Of a stretch of 32,000 nucleotides of DNA, positions 13,896 through 32,000 are shown one piece after another (the stretch's first letter is position 1; every line of letters begins with the position of its first letter). Position numbers and translations under genes: made by a program. The stretch lies in NCBI RefSeq assembly GCF_001465295.1, contig NZ_CP011034.1, forward strand, positions 930,001 through 962,000, read 5' to 3'. The notes below the pieces were generated by a model. The model saw only the letters and a program-made list of their open reading frames with translations. It was not told the DNA's origin and did not search any database. The stretch is from Pseudoalteromonas translucida KMM 520 (GTDB lineage Bacteria; Pseudomonadota; Gammaproteobacteria; Enterobacterales; Alteromonadaceae).

Positions 13896-14693
13896 GTGTC
13901 AAAAGTAGCGTTTATTTCAGGTGCCAGTAGAGGTATTGGTCGTGCAACTGCCATCGCATTTGCAAAAGCAGGCTATCGAGTAGCAATAACAGCTCGTGAA
14001 TTAGATAGTGAGGTAGCACAGCAAAGTACGCAAGGGAGTTTAAAACAAACAGCCCAAATGATGGAGCAATTAGGTTGTGAAGTCATTGCGCTAAAAATGG
14101 ATTTACTTGATTTTAACTCCGTTGCAAGTGCTCTAAAGCAGGTGCTTGAACACTTTGGTAAAATTGACGTGGTTGTTAATAATGCTATTTATCAAGGTGC
14201 TGGCCTTAATGCTTCTTTATTGGATGTAACGCAGCAAACCCTTGAAAAAGTTGCTAGAGGTTACATAGGTGCGCCAGTGCAAATAGCACAAGCTGTTTTA
14301 CCAAGTATGTTAGCGCAACAAAGCGGCTGTATAATAAATATAACCTCGGGAGCGGGTGAAAAAGATCCGCCTATTCCTGCATCGAAAGGGGGCTGGGGTT
14401 ATGCATACGGTGCAGGTAAGGCTGCGGTGTCGCGACTGTCGGGTATTATTTGCCGTGAGCATGGTCATCAAGGTATTCGCGCTTTTACAGTAAACCCGGG
14501 AGTTGTTAACACTGAAACGCTAAGAGCGACTATTGGCGATCAGGGTATTAAAGGCCTACAGCAGGCTGTAGCCGAACCGGATGAAATAGGTAATGTACTA
14601 TTATGGATTGCAGATAATTCTGCAGCAGATGAGCTGCAGTACAGTACCATCTCCGCACAAAAATTAGCGCGCGAGCTAAACCTGCCTAAATAA
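13896..14693 (+). CDS. Short-chain dehydrogenase/reductase (SDR) family oxidoreductase
   Basis: The 265-aa ORF has a GTG start 8 nt after AGGAGA. It has the cofactor motif SGASRGIG, NNAI, and a catalytic S...YxxxK (ITSGAG ... YAYGAGKAA). Confidence 0.85.
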   Translation: MSKVAFISGASRGIGRATAIAFAKAGYRVAITARELDSEVAQQSTQGSLKQTAQMMEQLGCEVIALKMDLLDFNSVASALKQVLEHFGKIDVVVNNAIYQGAGLNASLLDVTQQTLEKVARGYIGAPVQIAQAVLPSMLAQQSGCIINITSGAGEKDPPIPASKGGWGYAYGAGKAAVSRLSGIICREHGHQGIRAFTVNPGVVNTETLRATIGDQGIKGLQQAVAEPDEIGNVLLWIADNSAADELQYSTISAQKLARELNLPK

Positions 14694-14852
14694 TAATCGA
14701 GTCTCATATGATCTTGCTGCTTTGTACTAGGAAAATTAAGCGCAATTACAGCAAGGTTATAATTAATAGAGCTTTATATTCTACCTGCCAAATTATGGTG
14801 TATTACCATATTAGATTTTAAGTATCATTACCCTCAACAATGGAAGTAAGCA

Positions 14853-16466
14853 ATGAAAACTCAATATGACGTAATTGTGGTTGGCGCCGGTTCTGCAGGG
14901 TGTACATTGGCTTATCGTATTGCGCGTGAAAGTTCGTTACAGGTGCTGTTGCTAGAAGCAGGCAGTACTGACAACAGTCCAATGATCCATATACCTATGG
15001 GTTTTGCATTTTTACTAAAACCGCACAAAAATAATTGGGCCTTTAAAACGTGCCCAGAACGCTTTTTAAACAATCGTATTGTGGATTTACCCCGTGGCAA
15101 AGTATTAGGTGGATGCAGTTCTATTAACGGTATGGTGTATATTCGTGGTCAAAAACAGGACTTTGATCGTTGGGCGCAGCAGGGGAATACAGGCTGGAGT
15201 TACAGTGATGTATTGCCTTATTTTATACGTTCAGAACACAACGAAAGCGGTGCTAACAATTATCACGGCGAAAATGGTCCTTTATGGGTAAGTGTTGTTG
15301 ATGATGAGTTTCCTATTCATCAGGCATTTAGCGCTGCCGCAATTGAAGCCGGGCATTCGTTTAACTTTGATGTGAATGGAGAATCACAAGCAGGTATTAG
15401 TTGGTTTCCACGTACCATTAAAAACGGCCGCCGATTTAGTAGTGCTCGGGCATTTTTGGGAGCCGGTAGTACGCTGACAAACTTAACAGTTATTACCCAC
15501 GCACGCGTCAAACAGTTAATATTTAATGATAACCGCGTTGTACAAATAAAAACGCAGATTAAAAACAAGGACGTGGTATTTAGGGTAAATCACGAGACAA
15601 TTATTAGTGCTGGTGCTATCAACTCACCACTGTTGCTTGAGCGTTCAGGCATAGGTCAAAAGGAACGTCTAGAGGCATTAGGTATAAAGGTCAAATTAGA
15701 TTTACAAGGGGTTGGAGAAAACCTTCAAGATCATTGGAACACCTATATAAAACAGCGTGTAAAAAATACTAAAACTTACTTTAGTGAAGCAAAAGGTATT
15801 GGCTTAATTAAAAACTTAATCAGATATGCATTTACTCGTAAGGGATTTCTTGGCGATTCGGCTGCAACAATGGCCGTGTTTTATAAAACATCTGATAAAC
15901 TTAAAACACCAGATGCACAAATACATTTTGCCCCCGCAGCTTCTAAAATAAATGCTCGCGGTAATATGCAGCCTATTAACGCAATTACGGTCGCCAGTTG
16001 TCTTATTCGCCCAACAAGCCGTGGCAGTGTCCACTTAAGTTCTGTTGATGAAAAACAAGCACCACAAATACAGTTAAACTACTTAGCTAGCCAAAGCGAT
16101 CAGAAATTATCATTGATAGCCTTTCGTAAAGCCAGACATATACTCAAGCAAACCTCTCTTGCAGCAATGCTTGATGGCGAAGCAGAGCCAGGTGAAAAGC
16201 TACAAAGTGACGACTCTCTTTTAGAATACATCAAAAATACGGGGGAACCGGTTCATCATCTAGCTGGTAGCTGTAAAATGGGCTCTGATCCAATGGCTGT
16301 GGTGGATGAGCGATTAATGGTGCACGGTATTAATAATTTACGAGTAGCTGATGCATCGATAATGCCCGATTTGATAAGTGGCAATACGCATGCTACTTGT
16401 GTGATGATTGGTGAGAAGTGCGCAGATTTTGTAATACGCAGTTACTCAGACAAAGCTACTCTATGA
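14853..16466 (+). CDS. GMC-family FAD-dependent oxidoreductase (choline/alcohol dehydrogenase-like)
   Basis: The 537-aa ORF has an N-terminal Rossmann DVIVVGAGSAGC..A.R..E and GMC signature 1 GKVLGGCSSINGMVYIRG. The C-terminal active-site region is HHLAGSCKMG ... GNTHATCVMIGEK. Confidence 0.85.
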   Translation: MKTQYDVIVVGAGSAGCTLAYRIARESSLQVLLLEAGSTDNSPMIHIPMGFAFLLKPHKNNWAFKTCPERFLNNRIVDLPRGKVLGGCSSINGMVYIRGQKQDFDRWAQQGNTGWSYSDVLPYFIRSEHNESGANNYHGENGPLWVSVVDDEFPIHQAFSAAAIEAGHSFNFDVNGESQAGISWFPRTIKNGRRFSSARAFLGAGSTLTNLTVITHARVKQLIFNDNRVVQIKTQIKNKDVVFRVNHETIISAGAINSPLLLERSGIGQKERLEALGIKVKLDLQGVGENLQDHWNTYIKQRVKNTKTYFSEAKGIGLIKNLIRYAFTRKGFLGDSAATMAVFYKTSDKLKTPDAQIHFAPAASKINARGNMQPINAITVASCLIRPTSRGSVHLSSVDEKQAPQIQLNYLASQSDQKLSLIAFRKARHILKQTSLAAMLDGEAEPGEKLQSDDSLLEYIKNTGEPVHHLAGSCKMGSDPMAVVDERLMVHGINNLRVADASIMPDLISGNTHATCVMIGEKCADFVIRSYSDKATL

Positions 16467-16555
16467 ATAAGTGCCTAATTTATTTTGGTAGGATCATATC
16501 AGTAAATTTAAATTCTGAAAGGTGCCTTACTGCACAATCTAGTTACTTATAAATA

Positions 16556-16585: not shown

Positions 16586-16604
16586 CACTATAATAATTGT
16601 TTAA

Positions 16605-18962
16605 TTAATACTCAAAACTAACATCTATACCATAGGTTCTTGGCGTGCCGTATACTTGTGCATCAAAAAAGTTAAAGTTTGAGCCAAATACAGTGTACTC
16701 TTCATCGGTAATATTTTTCCCCCAAAGCGATACTTTAAGGTTTGAACGCTCACCTACCTTGATATTAGATAACGTTAGGCGTGCATTGAGTAGCGCATAG
16801 TTATCACCCACTAAGCTTGGATCAGATACAGAAAATTGATATTCATCTACCATTACATAGTTAGTATTTAATGCTAAATTACCGAAATCTAGCTCAGCTA
16901 TAGTCCAATCCATAGCAACAGATGCAGAATAAGAGGTGTTGTCGGTATAAGTAATATCCGTGTATTTTGTATCTAAGTAACCTAGGCTGGTAGTAAAGAA
17001 TAAATTGTCGGTTGCTGCAAACTTAGCGTCTATTTCAATCCCCATATTTTCAGACTCACCGGTGTTAAGCGAGCGACGAATATTGCCCTCGAACACAGTT
17101 TTTTGTAGATTGGTATTACTATTAAAAAATACTGCGGTATTAAGCATTAAGCGATCATCTAACAACATTGCTTTAACACCAACCTCATACGCAGTAGTAT
17201 CTTCAGGATCTGCCGGTGTGAGTGTACCTTCGTAGTTAGCTTCGCCCATATTTGCTGGATTAAGATAAGCAAATCGGTCGATAGAACCCGGGTTGTAAAC
17301 ACCTGCAGCATAGCCTTGCGAGATACTGGCATACATAGTTAAATCTTGATCGAATACATAATTGAAGAGCAGTGATCCCACTGTTTTTGACCAATTAGTC
17401 TCTGAATGCAGATCGTTTTTTAACATAGCATCATACTTTGCTACGTTAGTCAGTGATTTAGTATCATCTGTGTAGCGTATCCCTGCAACTACGTTAAGCT
17501 CATCTGTTAATTTATAATCAACATTAGCAAAAAGAGCAGATGACTTAGCTTTTACACTATAAAACGCACCAAAAGGCAGCGTTTTACTAAATAATACGTT
17601 AGCGCCTTGGCCAGTAAAAATACCTATGTTCCATGGATTATTCTCTTCACCTTCTTCAGAAAAGTAATAATAACCGGCTACATATTTCAAATCACCTTCT
17701 AAAAACTGTCCTAGTAATTGAAATTCTTGTGATTTTTGCTCTTGTGACTTCACACTAGTATATTGAAACGCTGGAATTGCAATAACATCACTGGCGTCAA
17801 CACTTGGTGGCGAAGTACTGAAATCTAAAGCTGGAGCAAAATAAGCACCGCCATCGGTATCGTAACCTTCTGTTAAATCAGAGTCATAACTGCGAATTGA
17901 GCTGATAGATTTAAAGGTATGGTTGTCAGAAAAATCCCACTCAACTGTTAAGTTATGTCCTTCAATATCAACATACTCACGACCATGTTGATCTAATTCA
18001 AACTCGGTTTGACGACCAGGCGCTTTCTCATTGGCGGCCATCATTGCAAACACGTTGCCGGCATAGAGCTTACCCGTAGATAGGTCCATAGTGGGTACAT
18101 TTGGATCTGTATATTGCGGGCGTACATTGCTAATTTGTACAGGCATAGCGACTGAACTACCATCAGTATTGTCATAGCTGTAGTTAACGGTAAAATCATC
18201 ACCGGCATAACGCAGTGCGACACGCAATGCATCAACATCTTCTGCACCTAAGTTTTTTTCTTTTGCGCCTGCAAAGGTATTGGTAGCCCAACCATCATGC
18301 TCACTGGTCATGTAAGTTAGCCTGGCGGTAAAATCACCAAGTGCGCCGGTATCAATTGATGTGGTTGAGCTAAGTAAGCTGTTATTGCCTGCAGTAATTT
18401 TTTGCTTAAATTGAAAGTCATCTGATGGTTTGCTAGTGACTAAGTTAAGCGCACCACCGGTAGTATTTTTTCCCCACAGTGTGCCCTGCGGACCACGCAG
18501 TACTTCCATGCGTTCTAAATCAACAATATTAAAAATAGCCCCAGAGTTCCGTGCTAAATAAACGCCATCTAAATAAATGCCGACTTTAGGGTCGATAGCT
18601 AATGAAGGCTCTGCCGTACCTAGCCCACGAATATCCATGCCAACGTTAAAAGTACTGCCATATGGAGGAACTATTCTAACGTTAGGTGCTTGCGCATTTA
18701 GATCACTAATATCTTCAATCCCAAGGTTTTCTATTGTTTCTGCGTTAAAAGCGGTAATGGCAATAGGCGTTTCTTGTAATGTGCTAATACGTTTTTGGGC
18801 TGTTACTGAAACACGTTCAATGCCTTTAACGGCGGTCTGTTTAACTTCGGCTTGCTCTGGTTCTTGTGCTGCAAATGCCTGACCAGATACAGCGCATGCA
18901 ATAGCAAACGCTAACGGTTTTATAGTGAGATTTGATGTAAACCTATTGTCATTTAAATTCAT
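16605..18962 (-). CDS. TonB-dependent outer-membrane receptor
   Basis: The 785-aa ORF has a signal peptide (AIACAVSGQAFAAQE). Plug-domain motifs are ERVSVTAQKR, IEDISDLNAQAPNV, RGLG and MEVLRGPQGTLWGKNTTGGALN. A long aromatic/Gly-rich barrel follows, and the C-terminus is TPRTYGIDVSFEY. Confidence 0.9.
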   Translation of the reverse strand: MNLNDNRFTSNLTIKPLAFAIACAVSGQAFAAQEPEQAEVKQTAVKGIERVSVTAQKRISTLQETPIAITAFNAETIENLGIEDISDLNAQAPNVRIVPPYGSTFNVGMDIRGLGTAEPSLAIDPKVGIYLDGVYLARNSGAIFNIVDLERMEVLRGPQGTLWGKNTTGGALNLVTSKPSDDFQFKQKITAGNNSLLSSTTSIDTGALGDFTARLTYMTSEHDGWATNTFAGAKEKNLGAEDVDALRVALRYAGDDFTVNYSYDNTDGSSVAMPVQISNVRPQYTDPNVPTMDLSTGKLYAGNVFAMMAANEKAPGRQTEFELDQHGREYVDIEGHNLTVEWDFSDNHTFKSISSIRSYDSDLTEGYDTDGGAYFAPALDFSTSPPSVDASDVIAIPAFQYTSVKSQEQKSQEFQLLGQFLEGDLKYVAGYYYFSEEGEENNPWNIGIFTGQGANVLFSKTLPFGAFYSVKAKSSALFANVDYKLTDELNVVAGIRYTDDTKSLTNVAKYDAMLKNDLHSETNWSKTVGSLLFNYVFDQDLTMYASISQGYAAGVYNPGSIDRFAYLNPANMGEANYEGTLTPADPEDTTAYEVGVKAMLLDDRLMLNTAVFFNSNTNLQKTVFEGNIRRSLNTGESENMGIEIDAKFAATDNLFFTTSLGYLDTKYTDITYTDNTSYSASVAMDWTIAELDFGNLALNTNYVMVDEYQFSVSDPSLVGDNYALLNARLTLSNIKVGERSNLKVSLWGKNITDEEYTVFGSNFNFFDAQVYGTPRTYGIDVSFEY

Positions 18963-19530
18963 TACACTTCCTCGATGATTTTTATATTTATTTCAGCGAT
19001 AGGCATCCACTAACTACTGCAAACCTCATTGAGTAAAGCTTATCAAAGAGGAAATGCCTAACCGCTATTTTGTTGTACTTTTTTTACACTGCGGTTTGAA
19101 AGTAGCGATAAGTGATCTGTTGAGCATCACGCATTTGGACTAGGCGTAATTTAGCCATGATGAAAGTCAAATGTTATCGTAATAGCTCAAGCGCTAAGCG
19201 TGGTCGCTGTTATTCGGTTATTTAGGAGATAAATAGCTGTAGTTGCAAAAACTGTATTGTTTATATTTAAGTGTTTGAATTTATTATAAAGAAAATCACT
19301 AACCGCAGAGAAAGCAAAAATAATTGACTGCCCGGATAAAAGCTCAGTTATTTTTTATTTAGCTATCAGTAAGGCAGCCAGACTGGTAATGAGCCGCAAT
19401 TAATTGGAAGTTTTAGTGCTTAGTCCATATTGACGATGAGAGATAGTGGCTAGTGTGAAAATCTGGTGTTAAGCAAGTTGGTGAGTTTAACCAGTGCAAT
19501 TGCGCGCTAATTCTATGAAGGATAACAACC
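18963..19530. promoter_or_regulatory. 568-bp divergent control region (promoters of the TonB-dependent receptor and the monooxygenase operon; sites not mapped)
   Basis: This is the longest non-coding stretch in the window and it separates divergently oriented genes. There is an AAGGA Shine-Dalgarno sequence 8 nt before the ATG at 19531. I could not identify a convincing operator. Confidence 0.4.
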
Positions 19531-20751
19531 ATGAGTGTTCCATATAAAATTGATATTACAGGTATCTCAGATGATTTTCTTACACCAGAAGCTAATCGTC
19601 TCATCGCAGCGGCAGAGAAGTTGGTTCCTAACTTACTTGAGCGCGCCCAAGCTGCCGAAACTGCCGGTAAAGTACCTGATGAAACAATAAAAGAAATGAT
19701 TGCAGCAGGTTTGTTCCGTGTTTTACAACCTAAACGTTGGGGCGGCTATGAGCTTGACCCTAGAGTATTTTATATTATTCAAATGACGCTAGCGCAAGGC
19801 TGTATGTCTACCGCTTGGATTTATGGTGTTATTGGCGTACATAACTGGCAAATTGGCTTGTTTGATGAAAGAGCACAAATAGAAGTGCTTGCTGAAAACC
19901 CAGAGATATTAATTGCTTCTACTTATATGCCAGTGGGCAAAGTAGAAAAAGTGGAAGGTGGTTTTAACTTTTCAGGCCGTTGGGGTTTTTCAAGCGGTGT
20001 AGAACACTGTGAATGGATATTTTTAGGTGGCTTAGTGCCTAAATCACCAGGCAGTAAAGAGCTGGAACATAGAACATTTTTATTACCTAAATCTGATTTT
20101 AAAGTGGTAAAAAACTGGGATGTACTTGGACTACGCGCTTCTGGTAGTCACGATATTGTGGTTGAAGGGGCATTTGTTCCTGAGTATCGCACCCATCAAA
20201 CAAATGACTACAGCGATGCAGCTTGTAAAGGGCGCGCGATTAATGATAACTGGTTATACCGTATCCCATTTGTGCAAATATTTCAGCGTGCTGTATCTAC
20301 CGCGTGTATTGGCGCACTTGATGGCGCTGTTACTGAGTTTCGTCATCGCTGCGCTGAACACGTGGGTAAACACGGTGGTAAAACAGCAGAAGACGTGAAT
20401 GCACAAATGGCAGTAACCGAAGCAATAATGACCAGTGATCAGTTAAAGCTGGTGTTGTTTCGTAATTTTGCAGAAGTGGTTAAGCATACTCAAAATGGCG
20501 AAATGATGCCGGTTAATGACCGTTTACTACAGCGCGCGCAATCTGCAGCTGTACCTAAACAGTGTAGTGAAAGAATTAACGAGATTATGCGCGCTTGTGC
20601 AGCGTCGGGAACTTATAAAGGTAACCCGATTGAGCGAATTTTTCGCGATATAAATCAGTCTCGTGGCCATATTGCTAACAATACAGATACTTACATGCGT
20701 GCACATGGCACTGTAATGCTAGGTTTACCTAACTCAGATCCTTTTGTATAA
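19531..20751 (+). CDS. Acyl-CoA-dehydrogenase-fold, two-component flavin-dependent monooxygenase, oxygenase subunit (HsaA/TesA2-like)
   Basis: The 406-aa ORF has a size and blocks (LQPKRWGG, VIGVHNWQIGLFDERAQ.EV, GRWGFSSG, DVLGLRASGSHD, C-terminal RIFRDINQ...HIANN) that match my recollection of the group D flavin monooxygenases typified by HsaA of the steroid 9,10-seco pathway. It lacks the acyl-CoA dehydrogenase catalytic-Glu context. Confidence 0.65.
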   Translation: MSVPYKIDITGISDDFLTPEANRLIAAAEKLVPNLLERAQAAETAGKVPDETIKEMIAAGLFRVLQPKRWGGYELDPRVFYIIQMTLAQGCMSTAWIYGVIGVHNWQIGLFDERAQIEVLAENPEILIASTYMPVGKVEKVEGGFNFSGRWGFSSGVEHCEWIFLGGLVPKSPGSKELEHRTFLLPKSDFKVVKNWDVLGLRASGSHDIVVEGAFVPEYRTHQTNDYSDAACKGRAINDNWLYRIPFVQIFQRAVSTACIGALDGAVTEFRHRCAEHVGKHGGKTAEDVNAQMAVTEAIMTSDQLKLVLFRNFAEVVKHTQNGEMMPVNDRLLQRAQSAAVPKQCSERINEIMRACAASGTYKGNPIERIFRDINQSRGHIANNTDTYMRAHGTVMLGLPNSDPFV

Positions 20752-20765: not shown

Positions 20766-21836
20766 ATGTCTCGTTATCATAATTTAACTGTTGCTGAAGT
20801 AATACAAGAAACCGCTGATGCGAATTCTATTGTATTTGACGTACCAGCATCGTTAACCGAGCAATTTGACTATCAGCCGGGTCAGTTTTTGACCCTTAAA
20901 CTCCCTTATGAAGGGGCGTTTTTGATGCGTTGTTACTCTATGTCGAGCACGCCAAGTCAAGATACAGGATTACGTGTCACGGTTAAGCGTGTAGCAGACG
21001 GGCGAGGTTCAAACTGGATTTGCGATAATCTTAAAGCGGGTAGTAATATAGAAGTGATGCAACCTGCTGGGCTGTTTGTGCCAAAAGATTTAGCTGAAGA
21101 TCATCTGTTATGTGCAGGGGGCAGTGGTGTTACTCCTGTGTTGTCTATTTTGCGACATGTGTTAATTAATGGCACTGGAAAGGTGCGGGTTATATACGCT
21201 AATCGCGATGAAGCCTCGGTTATATTTCAACAAACATTTAAGGCATTATCGGCGCAGTACCCAGAGCGTCTTGAAGTAATTCATTTATTAGATTCGTTAC
21301 AAGGTATTCCTTCATTGTCACTGTTAACTTCGTTAGCCGATGGTATGCAACAAGGACGTGCTTTTATTTGTGGCCCTGGGCCATTTATGGATGCAATGGA
21401 ATTGGCCGTTAAAGCCGCTAAATTTCCTGCTAGTCGTATTCATATTGAACGCTTTTCTAGTGCAGTGCCAAAAATCACAACAAAACCGGTACCAGCCAAT
21501 TTATTAGAAACACCGATTCAAGACAATGATGCAGAACTTGTTGTTGATGAAACAAATATGCCAGCGGCAACAATACAACTTGAACTTGATGGCGAACATT
21601 ATGTTATTGCTTGTGAGAGCGGGCAAACCGTGCTCGATGCAGCTGAAAAAATAGGTATTGAATTGCCGTACTCTTGTCGCGAGGGTATGTGTGCCTCGTG
21701 CATGTGTGAAGTGGTGTCAGGGCAAGTAAAACTTAATAATAATGATGTGCTCGATGAAAAAGATTTAGCAAACAACTTAACGCTAAGTTGCCAAGCAGTG
21801 CCTTTAACCAGTGAACTTAAGCTCAAATATACTTAA
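20766..21836 (+). CDS. Ferredoxin-NAD(P)H reductase with C-terminal plant-type 2Fe-2S domain (KshB/PaaE-type oxygenase reductase)
   Basis: The 356-aa ORF has FAD-binding RCYSMSS and GRGSNW, and NAD-binding LCAGGSGVTPV. The C-terminal cluster is C-x4-C-x2-C...C (SCREGMCASCMCEV ... LSCQAV). It starts 14 nt after the monooxygenase stop. Confidence 0.85.
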   Translation: MSRYHNLTVAEVIQETADANSIVFDVPASLTEQFDYQPGQFLTLKLPYEGAFLMRCYSMSSTPSQDTGLRVTVKRVADGRGSNWICDNLKAGSNIEVMQPAGLFVPKDLAEDHLLCAGGSGVTPVLSILRHVLINGTGKVRVIYANRDEASVIFQQTFKALSAQYPERLEVIHLLDSLQGIPSLSLLTSLADGMQQGRAFICGPGPFMDAMELAVKAAKFPASRIHIERFSSAVPKITTKPVPANLLETPIQDNDAELVVDETNMPAATIQLELDGEHYVIACESGQTVLDAAEKIGIELPYSCREGMCASCMCEVVSGQVKLNNNDVLDEKDLANNLTLSCQAVPLTSELKLKYT

Positions 21837-21926
21837 TACCTAATACTAATATCAGTAACGCAACGCGTTATCACTCATTCACTCAGTGCAACATTGTTTG
21901 CACATTTCCGATATAAGGAATTTCCC

Positions 21927-22697
21927 ATGCAATCTCGTTTTAAAGATAAAGTCGCTTTCGTAACAGGTGGTGGCAGCGGAATTGGTGCAGCTACTGCACA
22001 GCGACTTGCACAAGAGGGCGCCACAGTAATTATTTGTGGTCGCAGTAAAGCACCATTAGACGAAGTAGTAGCGACTATTCGCCAGCAAGGCGGTAACGCC
22101 CATGCAGTACAAGCCGATGTAAGCAACGAGCAAGCATTTGTTACAGCGCTTGAGCAAACGGCGCAGCAATATGGTGGCCTCGATATTTTAGTTAATAATG
22201 CCATGGCCTTTTCGTATGGGGCAATTGAAGACATGAGCACCGAACAGTGGCATAGCAACTTTACAACCTCGGTCGACGGTACATTTTGGGGTACCCGAAC
22301 AGCAATGCAATTAATGAAAGAAAAAGGCGGTGCTATTGTTAATATTTCATCTATTTGTGGTGAATTAGGTACGCCGATGATGGCCGGATATAGCGCTTCT
22401 AAAGCAGCAGTAGTTAACTTTTCACGTGCGGCTGCGGCAGAAGGTGCAGCGCACAATATTCGCGTTAATGTGGTAGTACCCGCAGTAGTAGAAACCCCCG
22501 CAACGGCAGGTATGTTAAGTGACGAAGGTATGCTTAATAATACTAACAGACTTATTCCTATGGGCCGTGTTGGCCGCGCTGATGAGCTAGCCAGTGCAAT
22601 TGCCTTTTTAGCCAGCGATGACGCATCTTATATAACAGGGGCTTCTTTACCTGTTGATGGTGGCCGTACTGCAGTATTGGTAACCGCTTTAGATTAA
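21927..22697 (+). CDS. SDR family oxidoreductase
   Basis: Motifs are VTGGGSGIGAA, NNAM and the catalytic S...YSASKAA. The ORF-track start at 21894 is a TTG with no Shine-Dalgarno sequence. The ATG at 21927 has AAGGAA 6-7 nt upstream and gives the normal distance to the Gly-rich loop. Confidence 0.85.
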   Translation: MQSRFKDKVAFVTGGGSGIGAATAQRLAQEGATVIICGRSKAPLDEVVATIRQQGGNAHAVQADVSNEQAFVTALEQTAQQYGGLDILVNNAMAFSYGAIEDMSTEQWHSNFTTSVDGTFWGTRTAMQLMKEKGGAIVNISSICGELGTPMMAGYSASKAAVVNFSRAAAAEGAAHNIRVNVVVPAVVETPATAGMLSDEGMLNNTNRLIPMGRVGRADELASAIAFLASDDASYITGASLPVDGGRTAVLVTALD

Positions 22698-24061: not shown

Positions 24062-25222
24062 ATGGCACAATTAGATATAAGTCTCGATGCATATAATGAA
24101 TTAATAAATGCATTATACGAAGCGTCGGCAGATACCAGTTCTTCAAGTTGGAATATCCCTCTTAAGCTAATCCAAAGCATACTTCAAGCAAACTATGTCA
24201 CCTTAATATTAAAAGTTCCCGAGGAAGACGATTTGGGATTAATGATCGCAGTAGGTGAAGGCTTAGAAGAAGGGGACACCGTTCAGCATTTACCCTATCA
24301 ATATAAATTAACCCCTTTTGCTGATCAACCACTTGATACCGTGTTAACTGTTGCGGATTTTATGGATGAAAACGAATGGAAAAACTCATCATATAGGGAA
24401 CACTGGTGCGAAAAAAATAACATATACCATGTACTAACTGCCGATATTAGCACCCCTAATGTTGGTCATTTAAGGTTTAGGGTTACGCGAACCGATGCAC
24501 AAGAAGATTTTTCTCCAGCTGATAAAGCGTTTGTAGAGTTACTTATCCCGCATTTTAGACGCGCAATTACCACCTTTTTACAACTCAATAGTAGTGCCTC
24601 TTTGGGCTCGTTATATTCTCGTGCTATTGGTCGTTTGTCTATTGCTACTATTACTATTGATGAGCATGGCAAAGTACTCGATAAAAACGTATTTGCTAGC
24701 CATATACTCGATGCCGAAGACGGGCTTAAAATAATTGGCGGTAAACTAACCGCGCAAGATAACAGTGATAATCGCGAGTTAAAACGCTTAATTAAAGCAA
24801 CGTTTGCTAATGCCGATGGCAAGCAAACTATGCCAGAGGCAATGTCGATTACTCGTCCATCAGGCGAAATAGCTCTTGGTGTAGTAATTGAAGTTATTCC
24901 ATCATTAGGTTGGGCTGAAGGTAAAGGGCAAAACAAGGCCGTAATTTACATTCGCGATGCGGTAGGTAAATCGACCACCAGTATTGAAATATCGAAAAAG
25001 CTATTTGGTTTAACGCCGGCAGAAACTGCGTTATCACTGCAGTTAACTAATGGTTTATCGTTAGAAGAAGCCGCCGAAGAGCTAAATATTCGCCGTAACA
25101 CAGCGCGTGCTCACTTACGTTCTATATTTTCTAAAACCGGTGTACGCAGGCAAACAGAGTTAGTTAGATTGTTTTTAAATAGTGTCGCTGCGCTGGGCTA
25201 CGACGACAGAAATAGCTTGTAG
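24062..25222 (+). CDS. LuxR/FixJ-family transcriptional regulator with a large uncharacterised N-terminal domain (TeiR/TesR-like architecture)
   Basis: The 386-aa ORF has a C-terminal GerE-type HTH, LTPAETALSLQLTNGLSLEEAAEELNIRRNTARAHLRSIFSKTGVRRQTELV. The first ~310 aa have no receiver-domain Asp pocket and no autoinducer-binding motifs that I recognise. Confidence 0.8.
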   Translation: MAQLDISLDAYNELINALYEASADTSSSSWNIPLKLIQSILQANYVTLILKVPEEDDLGLMIAVGEGLEEGDTVQHLPYQYKLTPFADQPLDTVLTVADFMDENEWKNSSYREHWCEKNNIYHVLTADISTPNVGHLRFRVTRTDAQEDFSPADKAFVELLIPHFRRAITTFLQLNSSASLGSLYSRAIGRLSIATITIDEHGKVLDKNVFASHILDAEDGLKIIGGKLTAQDNSDNRELKRLIKATFANADGKQTMPEAMSITRPSGEIALGVVIEVIPSLGWAEGKGQNKAVIYIRDAVGKSTTSIEISKKLFGLTPAETALSLQLTNGLSLEEAAEELNIRRNTARAHLRSIFSKTGVRRQTELVRLFLNSVAALGYDDRNSL

Positions 25223-25360: not shown

Positions 25361-26146
25361 TTACTTTCCGCTAAATACAGGATGGCGTTTTTGTAAAAAC
25401 GCTTCCATACCTTCACGTTGATCTTTTGATGCAAATAATAACGCATTTGCTTTGCGCTCCAGCGCCATAGCACTGGCAAGTGGAGCGTCCATTCCTGCTA
25501 AAATAACTTCTTTTATTTGCTCTGCCGCTAGCGGAGGCATACGTGCTATACGACGACAATTTGCTAGTGCCTGTTTATATACATCTTCATCTTCGCACAG
25601 CTCACTTACCAGTCCGCCTACCCAAGCATCGTAAGCACTAATAGGCTTGCCTGTAAGCGCCATTTGCATTGCTTTAGCTTTACCTACTGCACGTACTAAA
25701 CGCTGCGTGCCACCAATACCCGGCATTATGCCAATGGCTATTTCGGGCTGGCAAAAACTTGCGCCTTTACCGGCAATAATAATGTCGGCCAACATGGCCA
25801 GTTCACAGCCACCGCCATACGCGTAGCCATTTACTGCAGCAACTACAGGTATTGGGCATTGCTCAATAGGTGCCCATAGTCGCTCTGTATGGCGTTGGTA
25901 AATCTCAATTGGGTCTGCATCTATTAAGCTAGTAATGTCGCCGCCTGCAGCAAATACTTTGTCGCCACCGGTTAATAAAATACAGCGAATGTCTTTATTG
26001 TCTGCCAGCTCAGTAAAGTACTTAGATAGTAATGTTTGCAGCTCTAAGCTTAATGCATTGGTGGCACTGGGTCGGTTTAACGTTAACTCGGCCACACCAG
26101 GCTCAGGGAAACTTAGTAAAACGCTAGGCTCGTTTGTATCCGTCAT
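25361..26146 (-). CDS. Enoyl-CoA hydratase/isomerase (crotonase superfamily)
   Basis: The 261-aa ORF has an oxyanion-hole segment FAAGGDI. Both catalytic Glu contexts are present in AYGGGCELAMLADIIIAG...FCQPEIAIGIMPGIGGTQRL. Confidence 0.9.
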   Translation of the reverse strand: MTDTNEPSVLLSFPEPGVAELTLNRPSATNALSLELQTLLSKYFTELADNKDIRCILLTGGDKVFAAGGDITSLIDADPIEIYQRHTERLWAPIEQCPIPVVAAVNGYAYGGGCELAMLADIIIAGKGASFCQPEIAIGIMPGIGGTQRLVRAVGKAKAMQMALTGKPISAYDAWVGGLVSELCEDEDVYKQALANCRRIARMPPLAAEQIKEVILAGMDAPLASAMALERKANALLFASKDQREGMEAFLQKRHPVFSGK

Positions 26147-26307
26147 TCATTACTCCAAAACATTGCTAGGCAACGCACAGTAAAATTTCTATGTTGTTAT
26201 TGTCACTTGTTGTCGCCAAACACAGCATCGTCCATTTAGACGAAGCTGGTTATCTAATACTGCCTGTACACTGTTTTTATGGAATTATTTTATGACAAGG
26301 CTTAATT

Positions 26308-27090
26308 ATGCATGCGAGTAAAAACTATAAAGATAAAGTGGTACTCATAACCGGCGGTACTAAAGGCATTGGCCTTGGTATAGCACAAGGTTTCTTGTCG
26401 GCAGGCGCTAAAGTAGTAGTGTGTGGTCGTGAACAAGTAGAGCAGCTACCACAGGTAATCCTTGATGGAAAAACTCGTCAGGCACACTTTATTCAAGCTG
26501 ATGTGAAAGACATTGATAGCACCGCGGCCATGTTTAGCACCATAGTAAAAGAATATGGCACGCTTGATGTACTTATTAATAATGCCGGTGGCAGTCCGTT
26601 TGCTTTGGCAGACAAAGCATCTCCTCGTTTTCATGAGGCTATTCTTAAGCTTAATTTAATTGCACCGTTAAACGTAGCACAGCAAGCAAACGAAATTATG
26701 CAAGCAAATAACAGTGGCTGCATTATTTTTATAGGCAGTATTAGTGCCATGCGTGCTTCACCAGGTACGGCGGCTTATGGCGCTGCTAAAGCGGGTATTT
26801 TATCTTTAGTAAAATCACTTGCAGTAGAGTGGGCGCCTAAAGTGCGTGTTGTGGCGGTAAGCCCAGGGTTAGTACATACCGAAAACTCACACCTGCATTA
26901 CGGTGACGAGGCCGGAATTGCCGCAGTAAGCGCAACAATTCCTGCAGGGCGTATGGCGCAACCAGATGATATTGCTAACGCTTGTTTGTTTTTAGCTTCA
27001 GCAGAAGCAAGTTATGCAAGTGGCTGTAATTTACTGCTAAATGGCGGCGGTGAAATGCCCGCTTTTCTTAGTGCTAGCGAAACTAACTAA
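26308..27090 (+). CDS. SDR family oxidoreductase
   Basis: The 260-aa ORF has ITGGTKGIGLG, NNAGG and the catalytic S...YGAAKAG. It is divergent from the crotonase gene across a 161-bp region. Confidence 0.85.
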   Translation: MHASKNYKDKVVLITGGTKGIGLGIAQGFLSAGAKVVVCGREQVEQLPQVILDGKTRQAHFIQADVKDIDSTAAMFSTIVKEYGTLDVLINNAGGSPFALADKASPRFHEAILKLNLIAPLNVAQQANEIMQANNSGCIIFIGSISAMRASPGTAAYGAAKAGILSLVKSLAVEWAPKVRVVAVSPGLVHTENSHLHYGDEAGIAAVSATIPAGRMAQPDDIANACLFLASAEASYASGCNLLLNGGGEMPAFLSASETN

Positions 27091-27145: not shown

Positions 27146-28132
27146 TTGGCTAAATATGAATGGTTTGCAGAAATAGAAGCGATGATAGGGCGACAATATG
27201 GTCGTATCTATGCGTGGGACAAGGTTAATGAAGCTATGGTACGTCAGTGGTGTGAAATTATGGGGGTAGAAAACCCACTTTACACCGATGCAGACTACGC
27301 GGCAACAACCGAGTATGGGCAACTAGTAGCACCACCAGCAATGCTACAAAGTTGGTGTTTAGCGGGCTTTGGTGACAAAATTTTAGCACCGGGTTCAACT
27401 ACCGAAAATCCGTATGGCGTGCTCGAAATACTTGAAAAAAATGGCTACCCAGCGGTCGTGGCCGTTAATTCTAATTTAACGTTTGATCGCTACATTACTA
27501 TGGGTGAAAAGCTTTATTACACCACAGTACTCGATAGCATCAGTGAAGAAAAAACCACCGCACTGGGCACCGGCTTTTTTGTCACGCTAAAAATGACTTA
27601 TTTCTCAGAAAAAACCAATGGTGAAGCCGACGAAAAAGTGGGCGACATGATGTTTAGAGTCATTAAGTTTAAACCGGCGCAAAAACCTGAGCAAACAGCA
27701 CCCGCTAAAGAGGCTCCGGCCAGAAAACGTCCTAAGCCTGGGATCAGCGATGATAACCGCTTCTTTTGGGAAGGATTTAGCGAGCAAGAGCTGCGTATTC
27801 AACATTGTATAAGCTGCGACAAATTACAACACCCACCAGCACCTGTGTGCATGCATTGCCATTCGTTTGAACTCGATTACCAAGTAGCTAGCGGTAAGGG
27901 TGAGCTGTATTCATTTGTGATAATGCACTACCCACATGTAGCCCCATTTGATAGCCCAAATCCTATTGGTTTGATTGAGCTTGAGGAAGGCGTACGTATT
28001 CCTGCAGGCTTAATCGGAGTTGAAGAAGGTGTAGCCCCTAAAATTGGCCAAAAAGTGCAAGTCGAATATCACACATTTGATGGTGAGCTGACCTTGCCAC
28101 AATTTAGACTTGTTCCAACTAAGGAGTCGTAA
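27146..28132 (+). CDS. Fusion protein: N-terminal MaoC_N-type hotdog domain plus C-terminal DUF35 zinc-ribbon/OB-fold domain (ChsH2-like architecture)
   Basis: The 328-aa ORF has a TTG start 6 nt after AGGAGA. A hotdog-like N-terminal half (aa 1-175) lacks a hydratase Asp/His motif. A Pro/Lys/Ala linker (KPAQKPEQTAPAKEAPARKRPKPG, nt 27671-27742) follows. Next is a C-x2-C...C-x2-C ribbon (CISCDKLQHPPAPVCMHC, nt 27806-27859), then an OB-like tail (GELYSFVIMHYP). Confidence 0.75.
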   Translation: MAKYEWFAEIEAMIGRQYGRIYAWDKVNEAMVRQWCEIMGVENPLYTDADYAATTEYGQLVAPPAMLQSWCLAGFGDKILAPGSTTENPYGVLEILEKNGYPAVVAVNSNLTFDRYITMGEKLYYTTVLDSISEEKTTALGTGFFVTLKMTYFSEKTNGEADEKVGDMMFRVIKFKPAQKPEQTAPAKEAPARKRPKPGISDDNRFFWEGFSEQELRIQHCISCDKLQHPPAPVCMHCHSFELDYQVASGKGELYSFVIMHYPHVAPFDSPNPIGLIELEEGVRIPAGLIGVEEGVAPKIGQKVQVEYHTFDGELTLPQFRLVPTKES

Positions 28133-29265
28133 TGGATTTTAATTTAAGCGAAGAGCAATCAGCCATTGCAGAAATGGCCAATAGCTTATTTACCGATACC
28201 TGTACCGATGACTTTCTTCGTGATTATGACGAAGCAGGCCAAGGCACCATGACGCAGTTATGGAACTCGTGTATAGAAACCGGGCTGCATGGGGTAATTA
28301 TTCCCGAAGCAATTGGTGGCATTGACTTGGGTATGACCGAGCTGAGCTTAGTGTTACAGGCGCAAGGCGGGGCGTTAGGGCAAGTTCCTTTATGGCGTCA
28401 TCAGCTGGTGGCCACTGCTATTGCAAAGTTTGCGGGTACAGAGCTACAAACTGCTGCACAAGCAGCGGCTGAGGGCACAAACTTATTAACGCTGGCATTT
28501 AACTTAGTAAATACTCACAGCGAAGCGACGCTCAACGTAGAAAAAACGAATGACGGCTTAAGCATTAATGGCTTGGTGCAGTCGGTTGCAGTTGCAGGAC
28601 TCGCTGACTTTGTTTTACTGCCACTGACCCTTGATGAGCAAACACGCTGGGCACTAGTGGCAACAACAGCGCCAGGTTTAACCCTAGTTAAAGGGCAGAT
28701 GACCCAAGGCGAAGAAGTTGCAGACTTACAACTAAATAACCTGCTTGTAAATAATGCAGCGTTACTCGATAGCAAAGCTAATGACTGGTTAGTGCCAAGA
28801 ATATTCGCCTCTTTAGCATCGTTACAGTTAGGTGTAAGTGAAGCGCAAATTAAAAAAACTGTTGAATATATTAGTGAGCGCCAACAGTTTGGTCGCGCTA
28901 TAGGCACTTTTCAAGCAGTACAAATGACCATGGCCGATACCAAAATTGCCCTTGAGGCATTACGTAGCAATGTATGGCAGTTGTGTTATCGCCTTGATAA
29001 CAACTTAGGCTGCGATCACGAAGCGTTAGCAACAGCGTGGCACGCCTGCGAAGCGGGTCATTCTATTGGCCACAAAGCGCAGCATGTGCATGGCGGTTTT
29101 GGTGTAGATGTTAGTTACGTTATCTACCGATACCTCTATTGGGGCCGGGCTATTAGCCTAAACTTGGGCGGGAGTCCCGCATTATTGGCAAAACTTGGCG
29201 ATGCCTTAACCGAAAATAATAAGCTGGGGTGGAAATATGACCTTGATGAAAACAATGCAATTTAA
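28132..29265 (+). CDS. Acyl-CoA dehydrogenase-fold protein, degenerate (probable non-catalytic subunit of a heteromeric ACAD)
   Basis: The 377-aa ORF has its ATG overlapping the upstream stop (TAATG). ACAD landmarks are retained (N-terminal helical domain, ERQQFGRAIGTFQAVQ, QHVHGGFGV). The S/TEPxxGSD flavin motif and both known catalytic-Glu positions are substituted (see finding). Confidence 0.75.
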   Translation: MDFNLSEEQSAIAEMANSLFTDTCTDDFLRDYDEAGQGTMTQLWNSCIETGLHGVIIPEAIGGIDLGMTELSLVLQAQGGALGQVPLWRHQLVATAIAKFAGTELQTAAQAAAEGTNLLTLAFNLVNTHSEATLNVEKTNDGLSINGLVQSVAVAGLADFVLLPLTLDEQTRWALVATTAPGLTLVKGQMTQGEEVADLQLNNLLVNNAALLDSKANDWLVPRIFASLASLQLGVSEAQIKKTVEYISERQQFGRAIGTFQAVQMTMADTKIALEALRSNVWQLCYRLDNNLGCDHEALATAWHACEAGHSIGHKAQHVHGGFGVDVSYVIYRYLYWGRAISLNLGGSPALLAKLGDALTENNKLGWKYDLDENNAI

Positions 29266-29656
29266 CGACATAAACGTAGGTGACAAGCTACCTGAAAAAG
29301 CGATTCCAATTACCGTGGCACTTATCTCTAATGGGGCTTTAGCAACGCGTGATTTTTTTCCAGGCCATCACGATAAAGATGCCGCTATTGCGCTGGGCTC
29401 ACCGCATATTTTTATGAATATTTTAACCACTAATGGCTTAGTGCAAAGTTATGTAGAAGGCTGGAGCGGCCCACAAAGTCGTTTAAAAAATATTGATATT
29501 AAGTTAGGTATGCCTAATTACCCTGGCGATGTTATGACCTTTATGGGCGAAGTAACCGCAACCGATGCCACAACCCGCACTGTGGATGTAGGTTTAGCCG
29601 GCAAAAATAAATACGGCATGCATGTTACAGGTACCGTGCAATTGGTATTGCCATAA
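29237..29656 (+). CDS. MaoC-like (R)-specific enoyl-CoA hydratase, single hotdog domain (ChsH1-like catalytic subunit)
   Basis: The 139-aa ORF has a hydratase-2-type Asp-x4-His motif, RDFFPGHH (D at 29351-53, H at 29366-68). It overlaps the upstream ACAD by 29 nt. Alternative in-frame ATGs exist at 29246 and 29255. Confidence 0.75.
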   Translation: MTLMKTMQFNDINVGDKLPEKAIPITVALISNGALATRDFFPGHHDKDAAIALGSPHIFMNILTTNGLVQSYVEGWSGPQSRLKNIDIKLGMPNYPGDVMTFMGEVTATDATTRTVDVGLAGKNKYGMHVTGTVQLVLP

Positions 29657-29673
29657 AATTTAGGAGAGACAAG

Positions 29674-30849
29674 ATGAATGAGTCAATTAGTGGTAAAGCT
29701 GCCATTGTGGGTCTGGGTGCCACAGAGTTTTCTAAAAATTCAGGGCGTACTGAATTACGTTTAGCCATGGAGGCAACATTAGCAGCTTTAAAAGATGCGG
29801 GAATTGATCCCAGTGAAGTGGATGGCTTTAGTAGTTACTCAGTTGATAAAGTACCAGAGTACGAAATTGCGCGTTTATTAGGCTGTAAAGAGGTTAAGTT
29901 TTTTTCACAAATACCTCATGGCGGCGGCGCAGCGTGTGCACCTATAGTGCATGCAGCAATGGCTGTGGCCAGTGGTGTGGCTAAAACCGTAGTGGTATAT
30001 CGGGCGATGAACGAGCGTTCTTGGTATCGTTTTGGTACTGGCGATTATGGTTTTTCATCAACCCCTATTTTTGAAAATGTGAATTACGGTTATTACATGC
30101 CCCATGGTTTTCATACTCCTGCAAGTTGGGTGGGTATGTTTGCACAGCGTTATATGCATGAGTATGGCGCTACATCAGAAGATTTTGGTCTTGTTGCGGT
30201 TGCCGCACGTGACTTTGCAGCAACTAACCCTGCGGCATTCTTTTACGAAAAACCAATTACTTTGGCCGATCACCAAGCGTCTAAGTGGATTTGTGAGCCG
30301 CTACATTTACTTGATTGTTGTCAAGAATCTGATGGTGCGGTAGCAATGATTATTACCAGTGTTGAGCGTGCAAAAACGCTAAAAAATAAACCTGTAGTAA
30401 TTAAAGCCGGTTCGCAAGGTATTGCCGAAGGTCAGCAAAGTATGACCTCGTATTATCGCGACGACATTACCGGTTTACCCGAAATGGGCATAGTAGCAAA
30501 AGAGCTTTATGCACAATCAGGCCTAGGGCCTGATGATTTTCAAACCGCGATTATTTACGATCACTTTACCCCTTTTGTATTACCACAACTTGAAGAGTTT
30601 GGGTTTGTGGAACGTGGTAAAGCAAAGGAGTTTATTCGCGCAGGTCATCATCAGCGTGGTGGTAAGTTACCTATTAATACCCATGGAGGACAGTTAGGTG
30701 AAGCCTATATCCATGGTATGAATGGCGTGGCCGAAGCAGTACGACAAGTGCGTGGTACAGCAGTAAACCAAGTTGATAATGTTGAAAATGTACTCGTTAC
30801 AGCGGGCACTGGTGTACCAACCAGCGGCTTAATTTTAGGCGCAGAGTAG
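29674..30849 (+). CDS. Thiolase-fold protein of the SCP-x/lipid-transfer (Ltp) type, likely a retro-aldolase rather than a thiolase (Ltp2/Sal-like)
   Basis: The 391-aa ORF has thiolase-fold landmarks (AIVGLGATEF, DCCQESDGAVAMII, NTHGG). The NEAF block reads YDHF, and the C-terminal catalytic C-x-G-G-G block reads TAGTG (30799-30813). Confidence 0.75.
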   Translation: MNESISGKAAIVGLGATEFSKNSGRTELRLAMEATLAALKDAGIDPSEVDGFSSYSVDKVPEYEIARLLGCKEVKFFSQIPHGGGAACAPIVHAAMAVASGVAKTVVVYRAMNERSWYRFGTGDYGFSSTPIFENVNYGYYMPHGFHTPASWVGMFAQRYMHEYGATSEDFGLVAVAARDFAATNPAAFFYEKPITLADHQASKWICEPLHLLDCCQESDGAVAMIITSVERAKTLKNKPVVIKAGSQGIAEGQQSMTSYYRDDITGLPEMGIVAKELYAQSGLGPDDFQTAIIYDHFTPFVLPQLEEFGFVERGKAKEFIRAGHHQRGGKLPINTHGGQLGEAYIHGMNGVAEAVRQVRGTAVNQVDNVENVLVTAGTGVPTSGLILGAE

Positions 30850-30858
30850 GAGTGCAAA

Positions 30859-32000
30859 ATGTTCATTGATTTAACACCAGAACAACGGGCGTTACGCCTA
30901 GAAGTACGTGATTATTTTTCTCAATTAATGACACCCGAACTGCGTCAAAAGCTAAGAGGCAGTGAAGGCGGCGAAGACTTCCGTAAGGTTGTACGTCAAA
31001 TGGGTAAAGACGGCTGGTTAGCTGTTGGTTGGCCAAAAGAGCACGGCGGCCAAGGTTATCAAGCCACCGAGCAGCTAATCTTTTTTGAAGAAGCCAATAT
31101 TGCAGGCGCGCCCCTACTATTTGTTACTATTAGCACAGTAGGTCCTGCGTTAATGGAATACGGTACTGAGTTACAAAAAGAAAAGTTTTTACCGGGTATT
31201 GCTAATGGCGAAATTCATTTTGCTATTGGTTATTCAGAGCCAAATGCGGGCTCTGATCTAGCCACTTTAAAAACCAAAGCTAGCTTAGAGGGCGACAACT
31301 TTATTGTTAATGGCAATAAGCTATGGACCTCAGGCGCTGAGTCGGCCGACTATATTTGGTTAGCGGCACGGACTGATCAAGAGCTGGCGCGTCACAAGGG
31401 GGTTTCTATTATGATTTTAGATACCCAAAGTGAAGGCTTTAGCAGCACAGTTATTCCAACGTGTTCAAACCCAACCGCGGCTACTTATTACGACAACGTA
31501 AAAGTACCTCAAGAAATGCTGGTGGGTGAATTAAATGGCGGTTGGCGTTTAATTACTTCGCAACTTAACCATGAACGTTTAGGTTTAGGATCGTGGTCAG
31601 ATAAAGTGGTTGGATTATTTCGCCGAGTGTATTTGTGGGCTAATACCGCAGATGAGCAAGGCAAGTCTGCTGCTAATAATCCTTGGGTGCGCGCAGCGTT
31701 AGCTGAGTGTTACGCTAAGTTAGAAGCCATGCGCTTAATTAACTTTCGTATCGCCGCCGATTTAGAAAAAGGCCATATGGATATTGCTCTGGCGTCAATT
31801 ACTAAAGTATATGGCTCAGAATGCTCAATTGAAATACTGCGTAAGCTGATTGATATTGTGGGAATGAATGGCATGGTGCGCGATGATTCTGCCGCGTCAT
31901 TTTTAATGGGTGAGCTGGAATACGAAGTGCGTGCCTCGGTTACCTTAACCTTTGGTGGTGGTGCTAATGAGTTACAAAGAGAACTAATAGCCCAATTTGG
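30859..32000 (+). CDS. Acyl-CoA dehydrogenase (FadE-like); C-terminus beyond the window
   Basis: Absent from the ORF track because it is open-ended. The ATG at 30859 lies 7 nt after GGAG, and the frame stays open to 32000. My translation starts MFIDLTPEQRALRLEVRDYF. It contains the flavin/substrate motif GYSEPNAGSD (31231-31257), NGNKLWTSGA and LNHERLGLG. Confidence 0.85.
   Translation, partial: MFIDLTPEQRALRLEVRDYFSQLMTPELRQKLRGSEGGEDFRKVVRQMGKDGWLAVGWPKEHGGQGYQATEQLIFFEEANIAGAPLLFVTISTVGPALMEYGTELQKEKFLPGIANGEIHFAIGYSEPNAGSDLATLKTKASLEGDNFIVNGNKLWTSGAESADYIWLAARTDQELARHKGVSIMILDTQSEGFSSTVIPTCSNPTAATYYDNVKVPQEMLVGELNGGWRLITSQLNHERLGLGSWSDKVVGLFRRVYLWANTADEQGKSAANNPWVRAALAECYAKLEAMRLINFRIAADLEKGHMDIALASITKVYGSECSIEILRKLIDIVGMNGMVRDDSAASFLMGELEYEVRASVTLTFGGGANELQRELIAQF

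Follow-up and report, generated by a model that had tools for sequence, protein, structure and literature searches.

Which compounds are broken down by the catabolic genes that follow a run of housekeeping genes on the chromosome of Pseudoalteromonas translucida KMM 520 is the question raised by this locus. The analysis started from a stretch of 32,000 nt (contig NZ_CP011034.1, positions 930,001 to 962,000), to which we will refer in the following simply as the window. An earlier note, made from the letters of the window, had proposed a steroid or bile-acid catabolic cluster that runs off its right end. Our analysis leads to the same answer. The region from 13.7 to 32 kb is the left half of a chromosomal cluster of ~42 kb, and this cluster very probably encodes aerobic 9,10-seco-type catabolism of steroids with a carboxylic side chain, among which bile acids such as cholate are the most likely substrates. 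All 15 genes that the note had listed as lying together were recovered with the same coordinates and folds in the open reading frame (ORF) listing and in family scans, and the last of them, chsE2, is indeed cut at position 32000.

The proposed function is supported by five consecutive genes at the right end of the window, which form a module for the removal of a C3 side chain:

27146-28132, plus strand: ChsH2, with a hotdog/MaoC-like N-terminal part, a DUF35 zinc ribbon and an OB fold; corresponds to ORF40 of Comamonas testosteroni TA441
28132-29265, plus strand: ChsE1/Scd2B-type subunit of a heteromeric steroid acyl-CoA dehydrogenase (ACAD); corresponds to TA441 ORF41
29237-29656, plus strand: ChsH1, MaoC hydratase partner subunit; corresponds to TA441 ORF42
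29674-30849, plus strand: Ltp2/Sal2 retro-aldolase; corresponds to TA441 ORF43
30859-32000, plus strand, running off the window: ChsE2/Scd2A-type ACAD subunit; corresponds to TA441 ORF44

The order of these five genes, chsH2-chsE1-chsH1-ltp2-chsE2, is identical to that of ORF40-44 in TA441, where disruptions identified the dehydrogenase, the hydratase and the aldolase that take the propionyl residue off the cholate side chain (PMC12502768). In the case of Ltp2, the Thermomonospora curvata steroid aldolase 6ok1_A is matched with 543 bits (E 3.6e-162), whereas the next-best structure in the PDB, 4u4e, reaches 158.5 bits (E 2.4e-45) and benzoylsuccinyl-CoA thiolase 95.6 bits (E 3.2e-26). The NCBIfam model PRK07855 is matched with 681.5 bits, over its cut-off of 469. 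Additionally, the catalytic residues are kept: the YDHF motif at residue 295 and Tyr345 correspond to Tyr294 and Tyr344 of TcLtp2, the alignment having an offset of +1 relative to 6ok1_A.

For the remaining proteins of the module, too, the closest relatives of known structure are steroid enzymes. ChsH2 matches 6ok1_B (E 7.7e-29) and 4wnb_A (E 3.5e-24) and contains the Pfam domains FAS1_DH_region (residues 13-154), zf-ChsH2 (208-244) and OB_ChsH2_C (246-308), and ChsH1 matches 4w78_B/4wnb_B (E ~5e-30). The two ACADs resemble the steroid ACADs Tcur3481/3483 (6wy8) and 4x28: ChsE1 is related to 6wy8_A (E 6.2e-56) and 4x28_D (E 7.3e-42), ChsE2 to 6wy8_B (E 1.3e-115) and 4x28_A (E 1.8e-111). By their likeness to these chains, ChsE1 and ChsE2 are predicted to be the two subunits of a heteromeric steroid ACAD. 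Thus, the side-chain-removal gene set read by the earlier note is borne out, and the comparison with characterised proteins that it had recommended returned steroid enzymes (6ok1, 4w78/4wnb, 6wy8, 4x28, 2rfq/3afe) as best relatives and not those of ibuprofen, alkylbenzene or cyclohexane-carboxylate degradation. Gene order and catalytic residues are conserved, and the 2025 knock-out assignments of TA441 (ChsE1E2, ChsH1H2 and Ltp2) carry over to the marine cluster gene by gene.

Some of these genes overlap, chsH2 and chsE1 by one base (28132) and chsE1 and chsH1 by 29 nt (29237-29265). These overlaps suggest that the subunits of both heteromeric enzymes could be translationally coupled. Compared with the igr region of M. 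tuberculosis and with T. curvata (6ok1, 6wy8, 4w78), the folds, the fusion of MaoC and DUF35 and the catalytic residues of Ltp2 are the same. The gene order is different, the matches are distant (88-390 bits) except for Ltp2 (543 bits), and a bile acid, not cholesterol, is the likely substrate here. No metabolism of cholesterol was seen in proteobacteria of this type.

Two adjoining genes further to the left point to the degradation of the steroid rings:

19531-20751, plus strand: ortholog of TesA2/HsaA, the oxygenase of the 3-HSA 4-hydroxylase of the 9,10-seco pathway
20766-21836, plus strand: ORF17/KshB-type reductase

The first product is an ACAD-fold flavin monooxygenase (Pfam Acyl-CoA_dh_N and Acyl-CoA_dh_2) that matches the HsaA structures 2rfq (E 2.5e-69) and 3afe (E 5.5e-68). 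In BLAST it is 69.8% identical over 394 aa to TesA2 of a Comamonadaceae genome with a tes gene layout (L082). The second product shows the domain order FAD_binding_6, NAD_binding_1 and C-terminal plant-type 2Fe-2S Fer2 (Pfam) of an FNR reductase, and is 52.9% identical (BLAST) to ORF17 of L082, a predicted KshB. A PDB search with the reductase was uninformative, and no KshB structure is deposited. On these grounds both enzymes had been named correctly in the earlier note, as a HsaA/TesA2-like monooxygenase and a KshB-type reductase. The two genes are separated by a gap of 14 nt and adjoin in Thalassotalea as well. In L082, sal-shy and tesG-F-E-D-A1 lie on one strand and tesA2-tesH-tesI-SDR-ORF17-ORF18 on the other (SDR, short-chain dehydrogenase). 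Pseudoalteromonas differs from C. testosteroni TA441/CNB-2 in that ORF17 directly follows tesA2 and a TonB-dependent receptor gene is divergent from tesA2.

The continuation beyond position 32000 was read from same-species Logan contigs, which were found by homolog searches and contig look-ups. These contigs are 97.7% identical at the nucleotide level to the last 1.9 kb of the window and 98-100% identical to each other. Complete ChsE2 has 389 aa in contig L086, which places its stop ~28 nt beyond the window. It is followed by two Scd1AB-like ACADs and an SDR, by an OYE/Fe-S/FAD flavoenzyme of the 5beta-delta4-ketosteroid dehydrogenase type (706 aa), by a TesD-like hydrolase (54% identical to TesD of L082), and by an SDR, a SnoaL-like protein and a long-chain acyl-CoA synthetase (CoA ligase). 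Further along are Sal (67% identity to L082, with a YDCY motif) and Shy (53%), an HsaC/BphC-type extradiol dioxygenase resembling TesB (281 bits), and an IpdAB-like CoA-transferase pair, whose IpdA-like member matches 6co6 (E 3e-64). The last part contains two crotonases (PRK08290 and PRK07938), an NMO-type reductase, two IpdE-like ACADs, a thiolase, an SDR and an amidase. The earlier note had expected the genes missing from the window to lie past its end. For the TesB/HsaC-like and TesD/HsaD-like enzymes, the CoA ligase and the IpdAB-type HIP genes this proved right; KstD and KshA were not found in the same-species contigs.

The amidase that closes the cluster is a 521-aa signature-amidase (Pfam PF01425; L089 13109-14674), situated ~24 kb to the right of position 32000. 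Since other bile-acid clusters (Chol1, Chol11) carry bile-salt amidase genes at their edges, this protein may serve to deconjugate tauro- or glyco-bile salts. The cluster of Pseudomonas (Stutzerimonas) stutzeri Chol1 (StdA1/2, Scd1AB, Scd2AB, Shy1, Sal1, Sad) resembles the present one in its two ACAD pairs, in Shy/Sal, in having a CoA ligase and in the amidase gene at its edge. In contrast to Chol1, the contiguous Pseudoalteromonas cluster shows no Sad-type aldehyde dehydrogenase and a single CoA ligase. In the case of the steroid mega-cluster of C. testosteroni TA441/CNB-2, which comprises tesA2, ORF17, tesR, ORF40-44, sal/shy, tesB, tesD and scdL1L2, the common traits are the ORF40-44 order and a LuxR-type regulator within the cluster. 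However, that cluster extends over ~120 kb, whereas the one of Pseudoalteromonas is compact and has no tesH, tesI, tesA1, tesEFG or kshA.

Several observations weigh against the proposed bile-acid function. The TesA2-like protein reaches only 345.9 bits with the NCBIfam HsaA equivalog model, the cut-off of which is 450, and therefore bears the NCBI name 'acyl-CoA dehydrogenase family protein'. Likewise, the continuation stays under the equivalog cut-offs for HsaC (281 vs 450) and HsaD (178 vs 400). KstD, TesI, KshA, TesA1, TesEFG and Sad are absent from the ~42 kb contiguous cluster as read in the same-species contigs. More precisely, no Rieske oxygenase KshA was found in the window or in contigs L086, L089 and L090, and no flavin reductase partner (HsaB/TesA1; Flavin_Reduct) in the window or its same-species continuation. 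No role is assigned to the three SDRs of the window (SDR1-3, see below), the small OYE, the crotonase and the GMC enzyme. Finally, experiments on KMM 520 or on the sister strain TAC125 were not found in the literature searched, so that the range of substrates named here (cholate, other bile salts, androgens) is an inference.

The absent genes, together with the 14 nt spacing of tesA2 and the FNR gene and the same neighbourhood in Thalassotalea, would fit an incomplete or cooperative pathway. The organism would then take off side chains and act on seco-steroid or HIP-type intermediates that others have made, or TesA2 would work with the FNR reductase, and there would be no full autonomous 9,10-seco pathway. 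We regard this as unlikely. Pseudoalteromonas haloplanktis TAC125 (NC_007481) is among 265 predicted steroid degraders, a listing that required at least six of eight key enzymes, with KshA and HsaC homologs included, and the A/B- and C/D-ring genes of P. haloplanktis are located in separate clusters (Bergstrand et al. 2016). The absence of KstD, KshA, TesA1 and TesEFG from the present cluster agrees with these separate ring-gene clusters, and the missing genes are therefore probably elsewhere in the genome. Moreover, ORF17, the ortholog of the FNR reductase, coexists with TesA1 in Comamonadaceae. As a weaker possibility, TesA2 may be served in compact marine clusters by the adjoining FNR/2Fe-2S reductase and not by TesA1. 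The comparison provides an explicit map of the contents and the gaps of a compact marine cluster.

To describe the distribution of the module, 80 related loci from at least 12 genera were collected by a ChsE2 homolog scan with 10 kb flanks. A block consisting of a gene for an enoyl-CoA hydratase (ECH), SDR3, chsH2, chsE1, chsH1, ltp2 and chsE2 is syntenic in most of these loci, and its co-location is therefore not due to chance. ChsE2 is 77-95% identical, with a syntenic block, in Pseudoalteromonas, Thalassotalea, Colwellia, Glaciecola, Marinobacterium, Endozoicomonas, Halomonas, Shewanella, Pseudomonas, Thauera, Aromatoleum and Zoogloea. In other genera the block is accompanied by KstD-like, IpdE-like, TesD-like and BaiCD-like genes, and several of these genera are published as predicted or tested steroid or bile-acid degraders.

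That the substrate of the cluster is instead a branched or alicyclic acyl-CoA other than a steroid (of the ibuprofen, alkylbenzene, cyclohexane-carboxylate or naphthenic-acid type), as could be thought from the use of DUF35 and SCP-x-type thiolase pairs and heteromeric ACADs in non-steroid pathways, from weak NCBIfam matches to BbsA/BbsB (30.6 and 118 bits) and to pimeloyl-CoA and cyclohexanecarboxyl-CoA dehydrogenases, and from the frequency of the block in known aromatic or terpenoid degraders (Pseudomonas, Thauera, Aromatoleum, Zoogloea), is highly improbable: among characterised proteins, steroid enzymes match far better than any others, as the Ltp2 scores given above illustrate, the Ltp2-specific catalytic motif and the TA441 ORF40-44 order are kept, orthologs of TesA2, ORF17, TesB, TesD, Sal, Shy and IpdAB lie in the same cluster, and Zoogloea and Azoarcus are themselves reported bile-acid degraders. 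A non-steroid module had been suspected from the wide distribution of the block; it was dropped in view of the KstD-, IpdE-, TesD- and BaiCD-like neighbours and of the reports on Zoogloea and Azoarcus.

Steroid catabolism at this locus is not a new finding, since the deposited annotation of KMM 520 and TAC125 already assigns the cluster to steroid degradation and publications have done so from 2016 onward. Of 11 complete window proteins that were looked up, 10 match deposited KMM 520 proteins (ALS32279-ALS32295) exactly, TpiA being the exception; the matches include GlmM, SecG, SDR1, the GMC enzyme, the TonB-dependent receptor, the TesA2-like protein, the FNR reductase, the OYE and Ltp2. Among the database names on genes of KMM 520 and TAC125, the FNR reductase is called '3-ketosteroid 9alpha-monooxygenase subunit B'. 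The TesA2 product of KMM 520 is annotated as the 3-HSA 4-hydroxylase enzyme, and its TAC125 counterpart bears the name 'Steroid degradation protein'. Besides the 2016 listing, TAC125 served as one of five reference "steroid degraders" (Holert et al. 2018), and Pseudoalteromonas was counted among the bile-acid degraders, with P. haloplanktis having multiple clusters (Feller et al. 2021). The remark in the earlier note that steroid degradation is much less studied in marine Alteromonadales was therefore overstated. As a genome finding the locus adds little, the ortholog in TAC125 being part of the published reference set for marine steroid degraders.

The orthologous locus of TAC125 (P. haloplanktis/translucida; chromosome I, CAI85956-CAI85968 onward) has identical TesA2 and GlmM. 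Its other proteins fall into shared 90% clusters, and gene order is equal as far as the accessions show. Regarding experiments on related organisms, cultures of the marine gammaproteobacterium Shewanella pealeana, for which genes for the cholate side chain are predicted, metabolised both cholate and testosterone. In its sister species S. halifaxensis, two genes of the present cluster have close homologs.

Combining orthology with family membership, the following course of bile-acid catabolism can be proposed. The steroid would be taken up through the outer membrane via the TonB-dependent receptor. SDRs, the small OYE and the 706-aa flavoenzyme would, judging from their families, adjust hydroxyls and double bonds. 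The C5 side chain would then be CoA-activated and shortened by the ACADs and Shy/Sal encoded past the window, for which orthology is clear. The remaining 2-methyl-propionyl-CoA (C3) chain would be dehydrogenated by ChsE1-ChsE2, hydrated by ChsH1-ChsH2 through the MaoC part and cleaved by Ltp2-ChsH2 through the DUF35 part, yielding propionyl-CoA and a 17-ketosteroid, a function shown by the knock-outs in TA441. Ring B would be opened by KstD and KshA encoded elsewhere, together with the ORF17/KshB-type reductase of the cluster. In ring A, TesA2 would hydroxylate the aromatic seco-steroid and the TesB-like and TesD-like enzymes would cleave it, activities predicted from orthology. Rings C and D would be degraded by the downstream IpdAB-like and beta-oxidation genes. 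As for regulation, a LuxR-type protein is likely to act as a TesR/TeiR-like activator, possibly via an 18-nt box. The gene of this regulator is situated within the cluster:

24062-25222, plus strand: LuxR-type regulator (Pfam GerE)

The protein has 386 aa and a C-terminal GerE helix-turn-helix at residues 319-370 (26.1 bits vs a cut-off of 23.5). The TeiR/TesR architecture that the earlier note had seen in it is thus present. Syntenic homologs in other genera are 34-77% identical. The ortholog in TAC125 carries the database name 'LuxR-type transcription regulator required for testosterone degradation', and it is through this name that a TesR/TeiR-like activator of the cluster is likely. The deposited KMM 520 protein (ALS32289.1) has 329 aa. 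As all other strains and the ORF found here give 386 aa, the deposited start is probably mis-called.

The intergenic regions of the cluster share an 18-nt box with the consensus CATCGTCC(A/G)TT(C/T)AGAC-N-A, of which three copies were located in the window:

26226-26243, plus strand: box CATCGTCCATTTAGACGA in the divergent promoter region between ECH and SDR3
19423-19438, minus strand: weaker copy CATCGTCAATATGGAC, 93 nt upstream of tesA2
13827-13842, plus strand: degenerate copy CTTGGTCCATTTAAAC with 3 mismatches, 54 nt upstream of SDR1

These three matches compare with 0.18 expected. The exact 16-nt core CATCGTCCATTTAGAC of the first copy occupies 26226-26241, and 66 nt separate its end from the ATG of SDR3 downstream. 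A search of 90 related loci (1.63 Mb) gave 150 matches with no more than 3 mismatches, compared with 5 in shuffled sequence. At position 18, outside the pattern that was searched for, 126 of the 129 unique instances have an A. Most of the matches fall on recurrent promoter positions, which are the divergent regions between ECH and SDR3 (most of loci L002-L081) and between tesD and an SDR, the upstream region of tesB, and a site ~85-95 nt upstream of tesA2. The tesA2 copy keeps its orientation and a similar distance in Thalassotalea (L084) and in Comamonadaceae (L082, position 9900, minus strand), and in this trait the Pseudoalteromonas cluster resembles those of C. testosteroni and Comamonadaceae. 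In the same-species contig L086, copies are present at 8430 (plus), 8469 (minus) and 14135 (minus). Altogether, the box spans cluster promoter regions of at least 12 genera of Beta- and Gammaproteobacteria.

The position of the box corresponds to that expected of a class-II activator site that overlaps the -35 element. The box string was not found in the literature searched, and it is the one item here that may be new. Tentatively, and with less than even confidence, we propose that it is a previously undescribed operator of TesR/TeiR-type LuxR regulators, which would define a shared steroid and bile-acid regulon from Comamonadaceae to Pseudoalteromonas. If the box is a TesR-type operator, steroid regulons could be predicted in proteobacterial genomes and steroid biosensors could be built.

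The other genes of the cluster within the window are the following:

13896-14693, plus strand: SDR1, short-chain dehydrogenase, candidate hydroxysteroid dehydrogenase
14853-16466, plus strand: GMC (choline-dehydrogenase-like) oxidoreductase (PRK02106)
16605-18962, minus strand: TonB-dependent outer-membrane receptor, divergent from tesA2
21894-22697, plus strand: SDR2, classical SDR
22707-23774, plus strand: OYE-family alkene (enone) reductase, NemA-like
25361-26146, minus strand: enoyl-CoA hydratase (crotonase), divergent from SDR3
26308-27090, plus strand: SDR3, conserved first gene of the side-chain operon

SDR1 is conserved in TAC125 (CAI85956), and in-cluster homologs in Halomonas and Zoogloea are 52-57% identical. 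In the case of the GMC enzyme the situation is different. Its 90% cluster has 4 members, KMM 520 and three short contigs, whereas that of SDR1 includes TAC125 and P. nigrifaciens sequences. In TAC125, SDR1 is the sole gene between secG and the TonB-dependent receptor gene, where KMM 520 has the GMC gene as well. Therefore, although the earlier note had rightly placed a GMC gene at this position, it appears to be an insert specific to KMM 520 and is probably not core to the cluster. The protein scores 558.6 bits with NCBIfam PRK02106, under the cut-off of 605. A role as cholesterol-oxidase-like entry enzyme was considered and dropped as a core part, since the gene appears strain-specific.

The TonB-dependent receptor is a candidate uptake protein for steroids or bile salts, and its divergent layout with tesA2 recurs in Thalassotalea. 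For SDR2 the mechanical ORF begins at TTG and has 267 aa; translation probably begins at the internal ATG at 21927, which fits the length of the Thalassotalea ortholog (256 aa). The triad of SDR2, OYE and LuxR genes is kept in Glaciecola and Endozoicomonas, and the Zoogloea locus shows SDR2 and OYE only. The crotonase, by synteny a member of the conserved side-chain block, reaches 411.9 bits with NCBIfam PRK08138 (cut-off 355), and SDR3 reaches 385 bits with PRK07856 (cut-off 255).

Regarding the extent of the cluster, its left flank is formed by the housekeeping genes rlmE, ftsH, folP, glmM, tpiA and secG and by two further features:

13566-13650, plus strand: tRNA-Leu(GAG) (ARAGORN)
~13656-13688: terminator-like hairpin after the tRNA-Leu, read from the sequence

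As the tRNA is preceded by housekeeping genes, the cluster begins directly after it. At the right edge the same-species contigs continue with rpsT-murJ-ribF-ileS (L090 5060-7000), and the cluster therefore stops there. A tRNA-linked mobile island was considered; no integrase was seen in the ~42 kb, and a repeat of the tRNA end was not looked for in depth. Further to the left, an RstAB-like two-component system is encoded at 952-2961 on the minus strand, and after it the five ORFs at 2974-6907 have no NCBIfam match at E <= 1e-30.

Finally, the G+C content of the chs region (0.44-0.45) is slightly above that of the left flank (0.38-0.42), and the amino-acid identity of Ltp2 across classes is 82-98%. 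The difference in G+C and this identity suggest horizontal spread.

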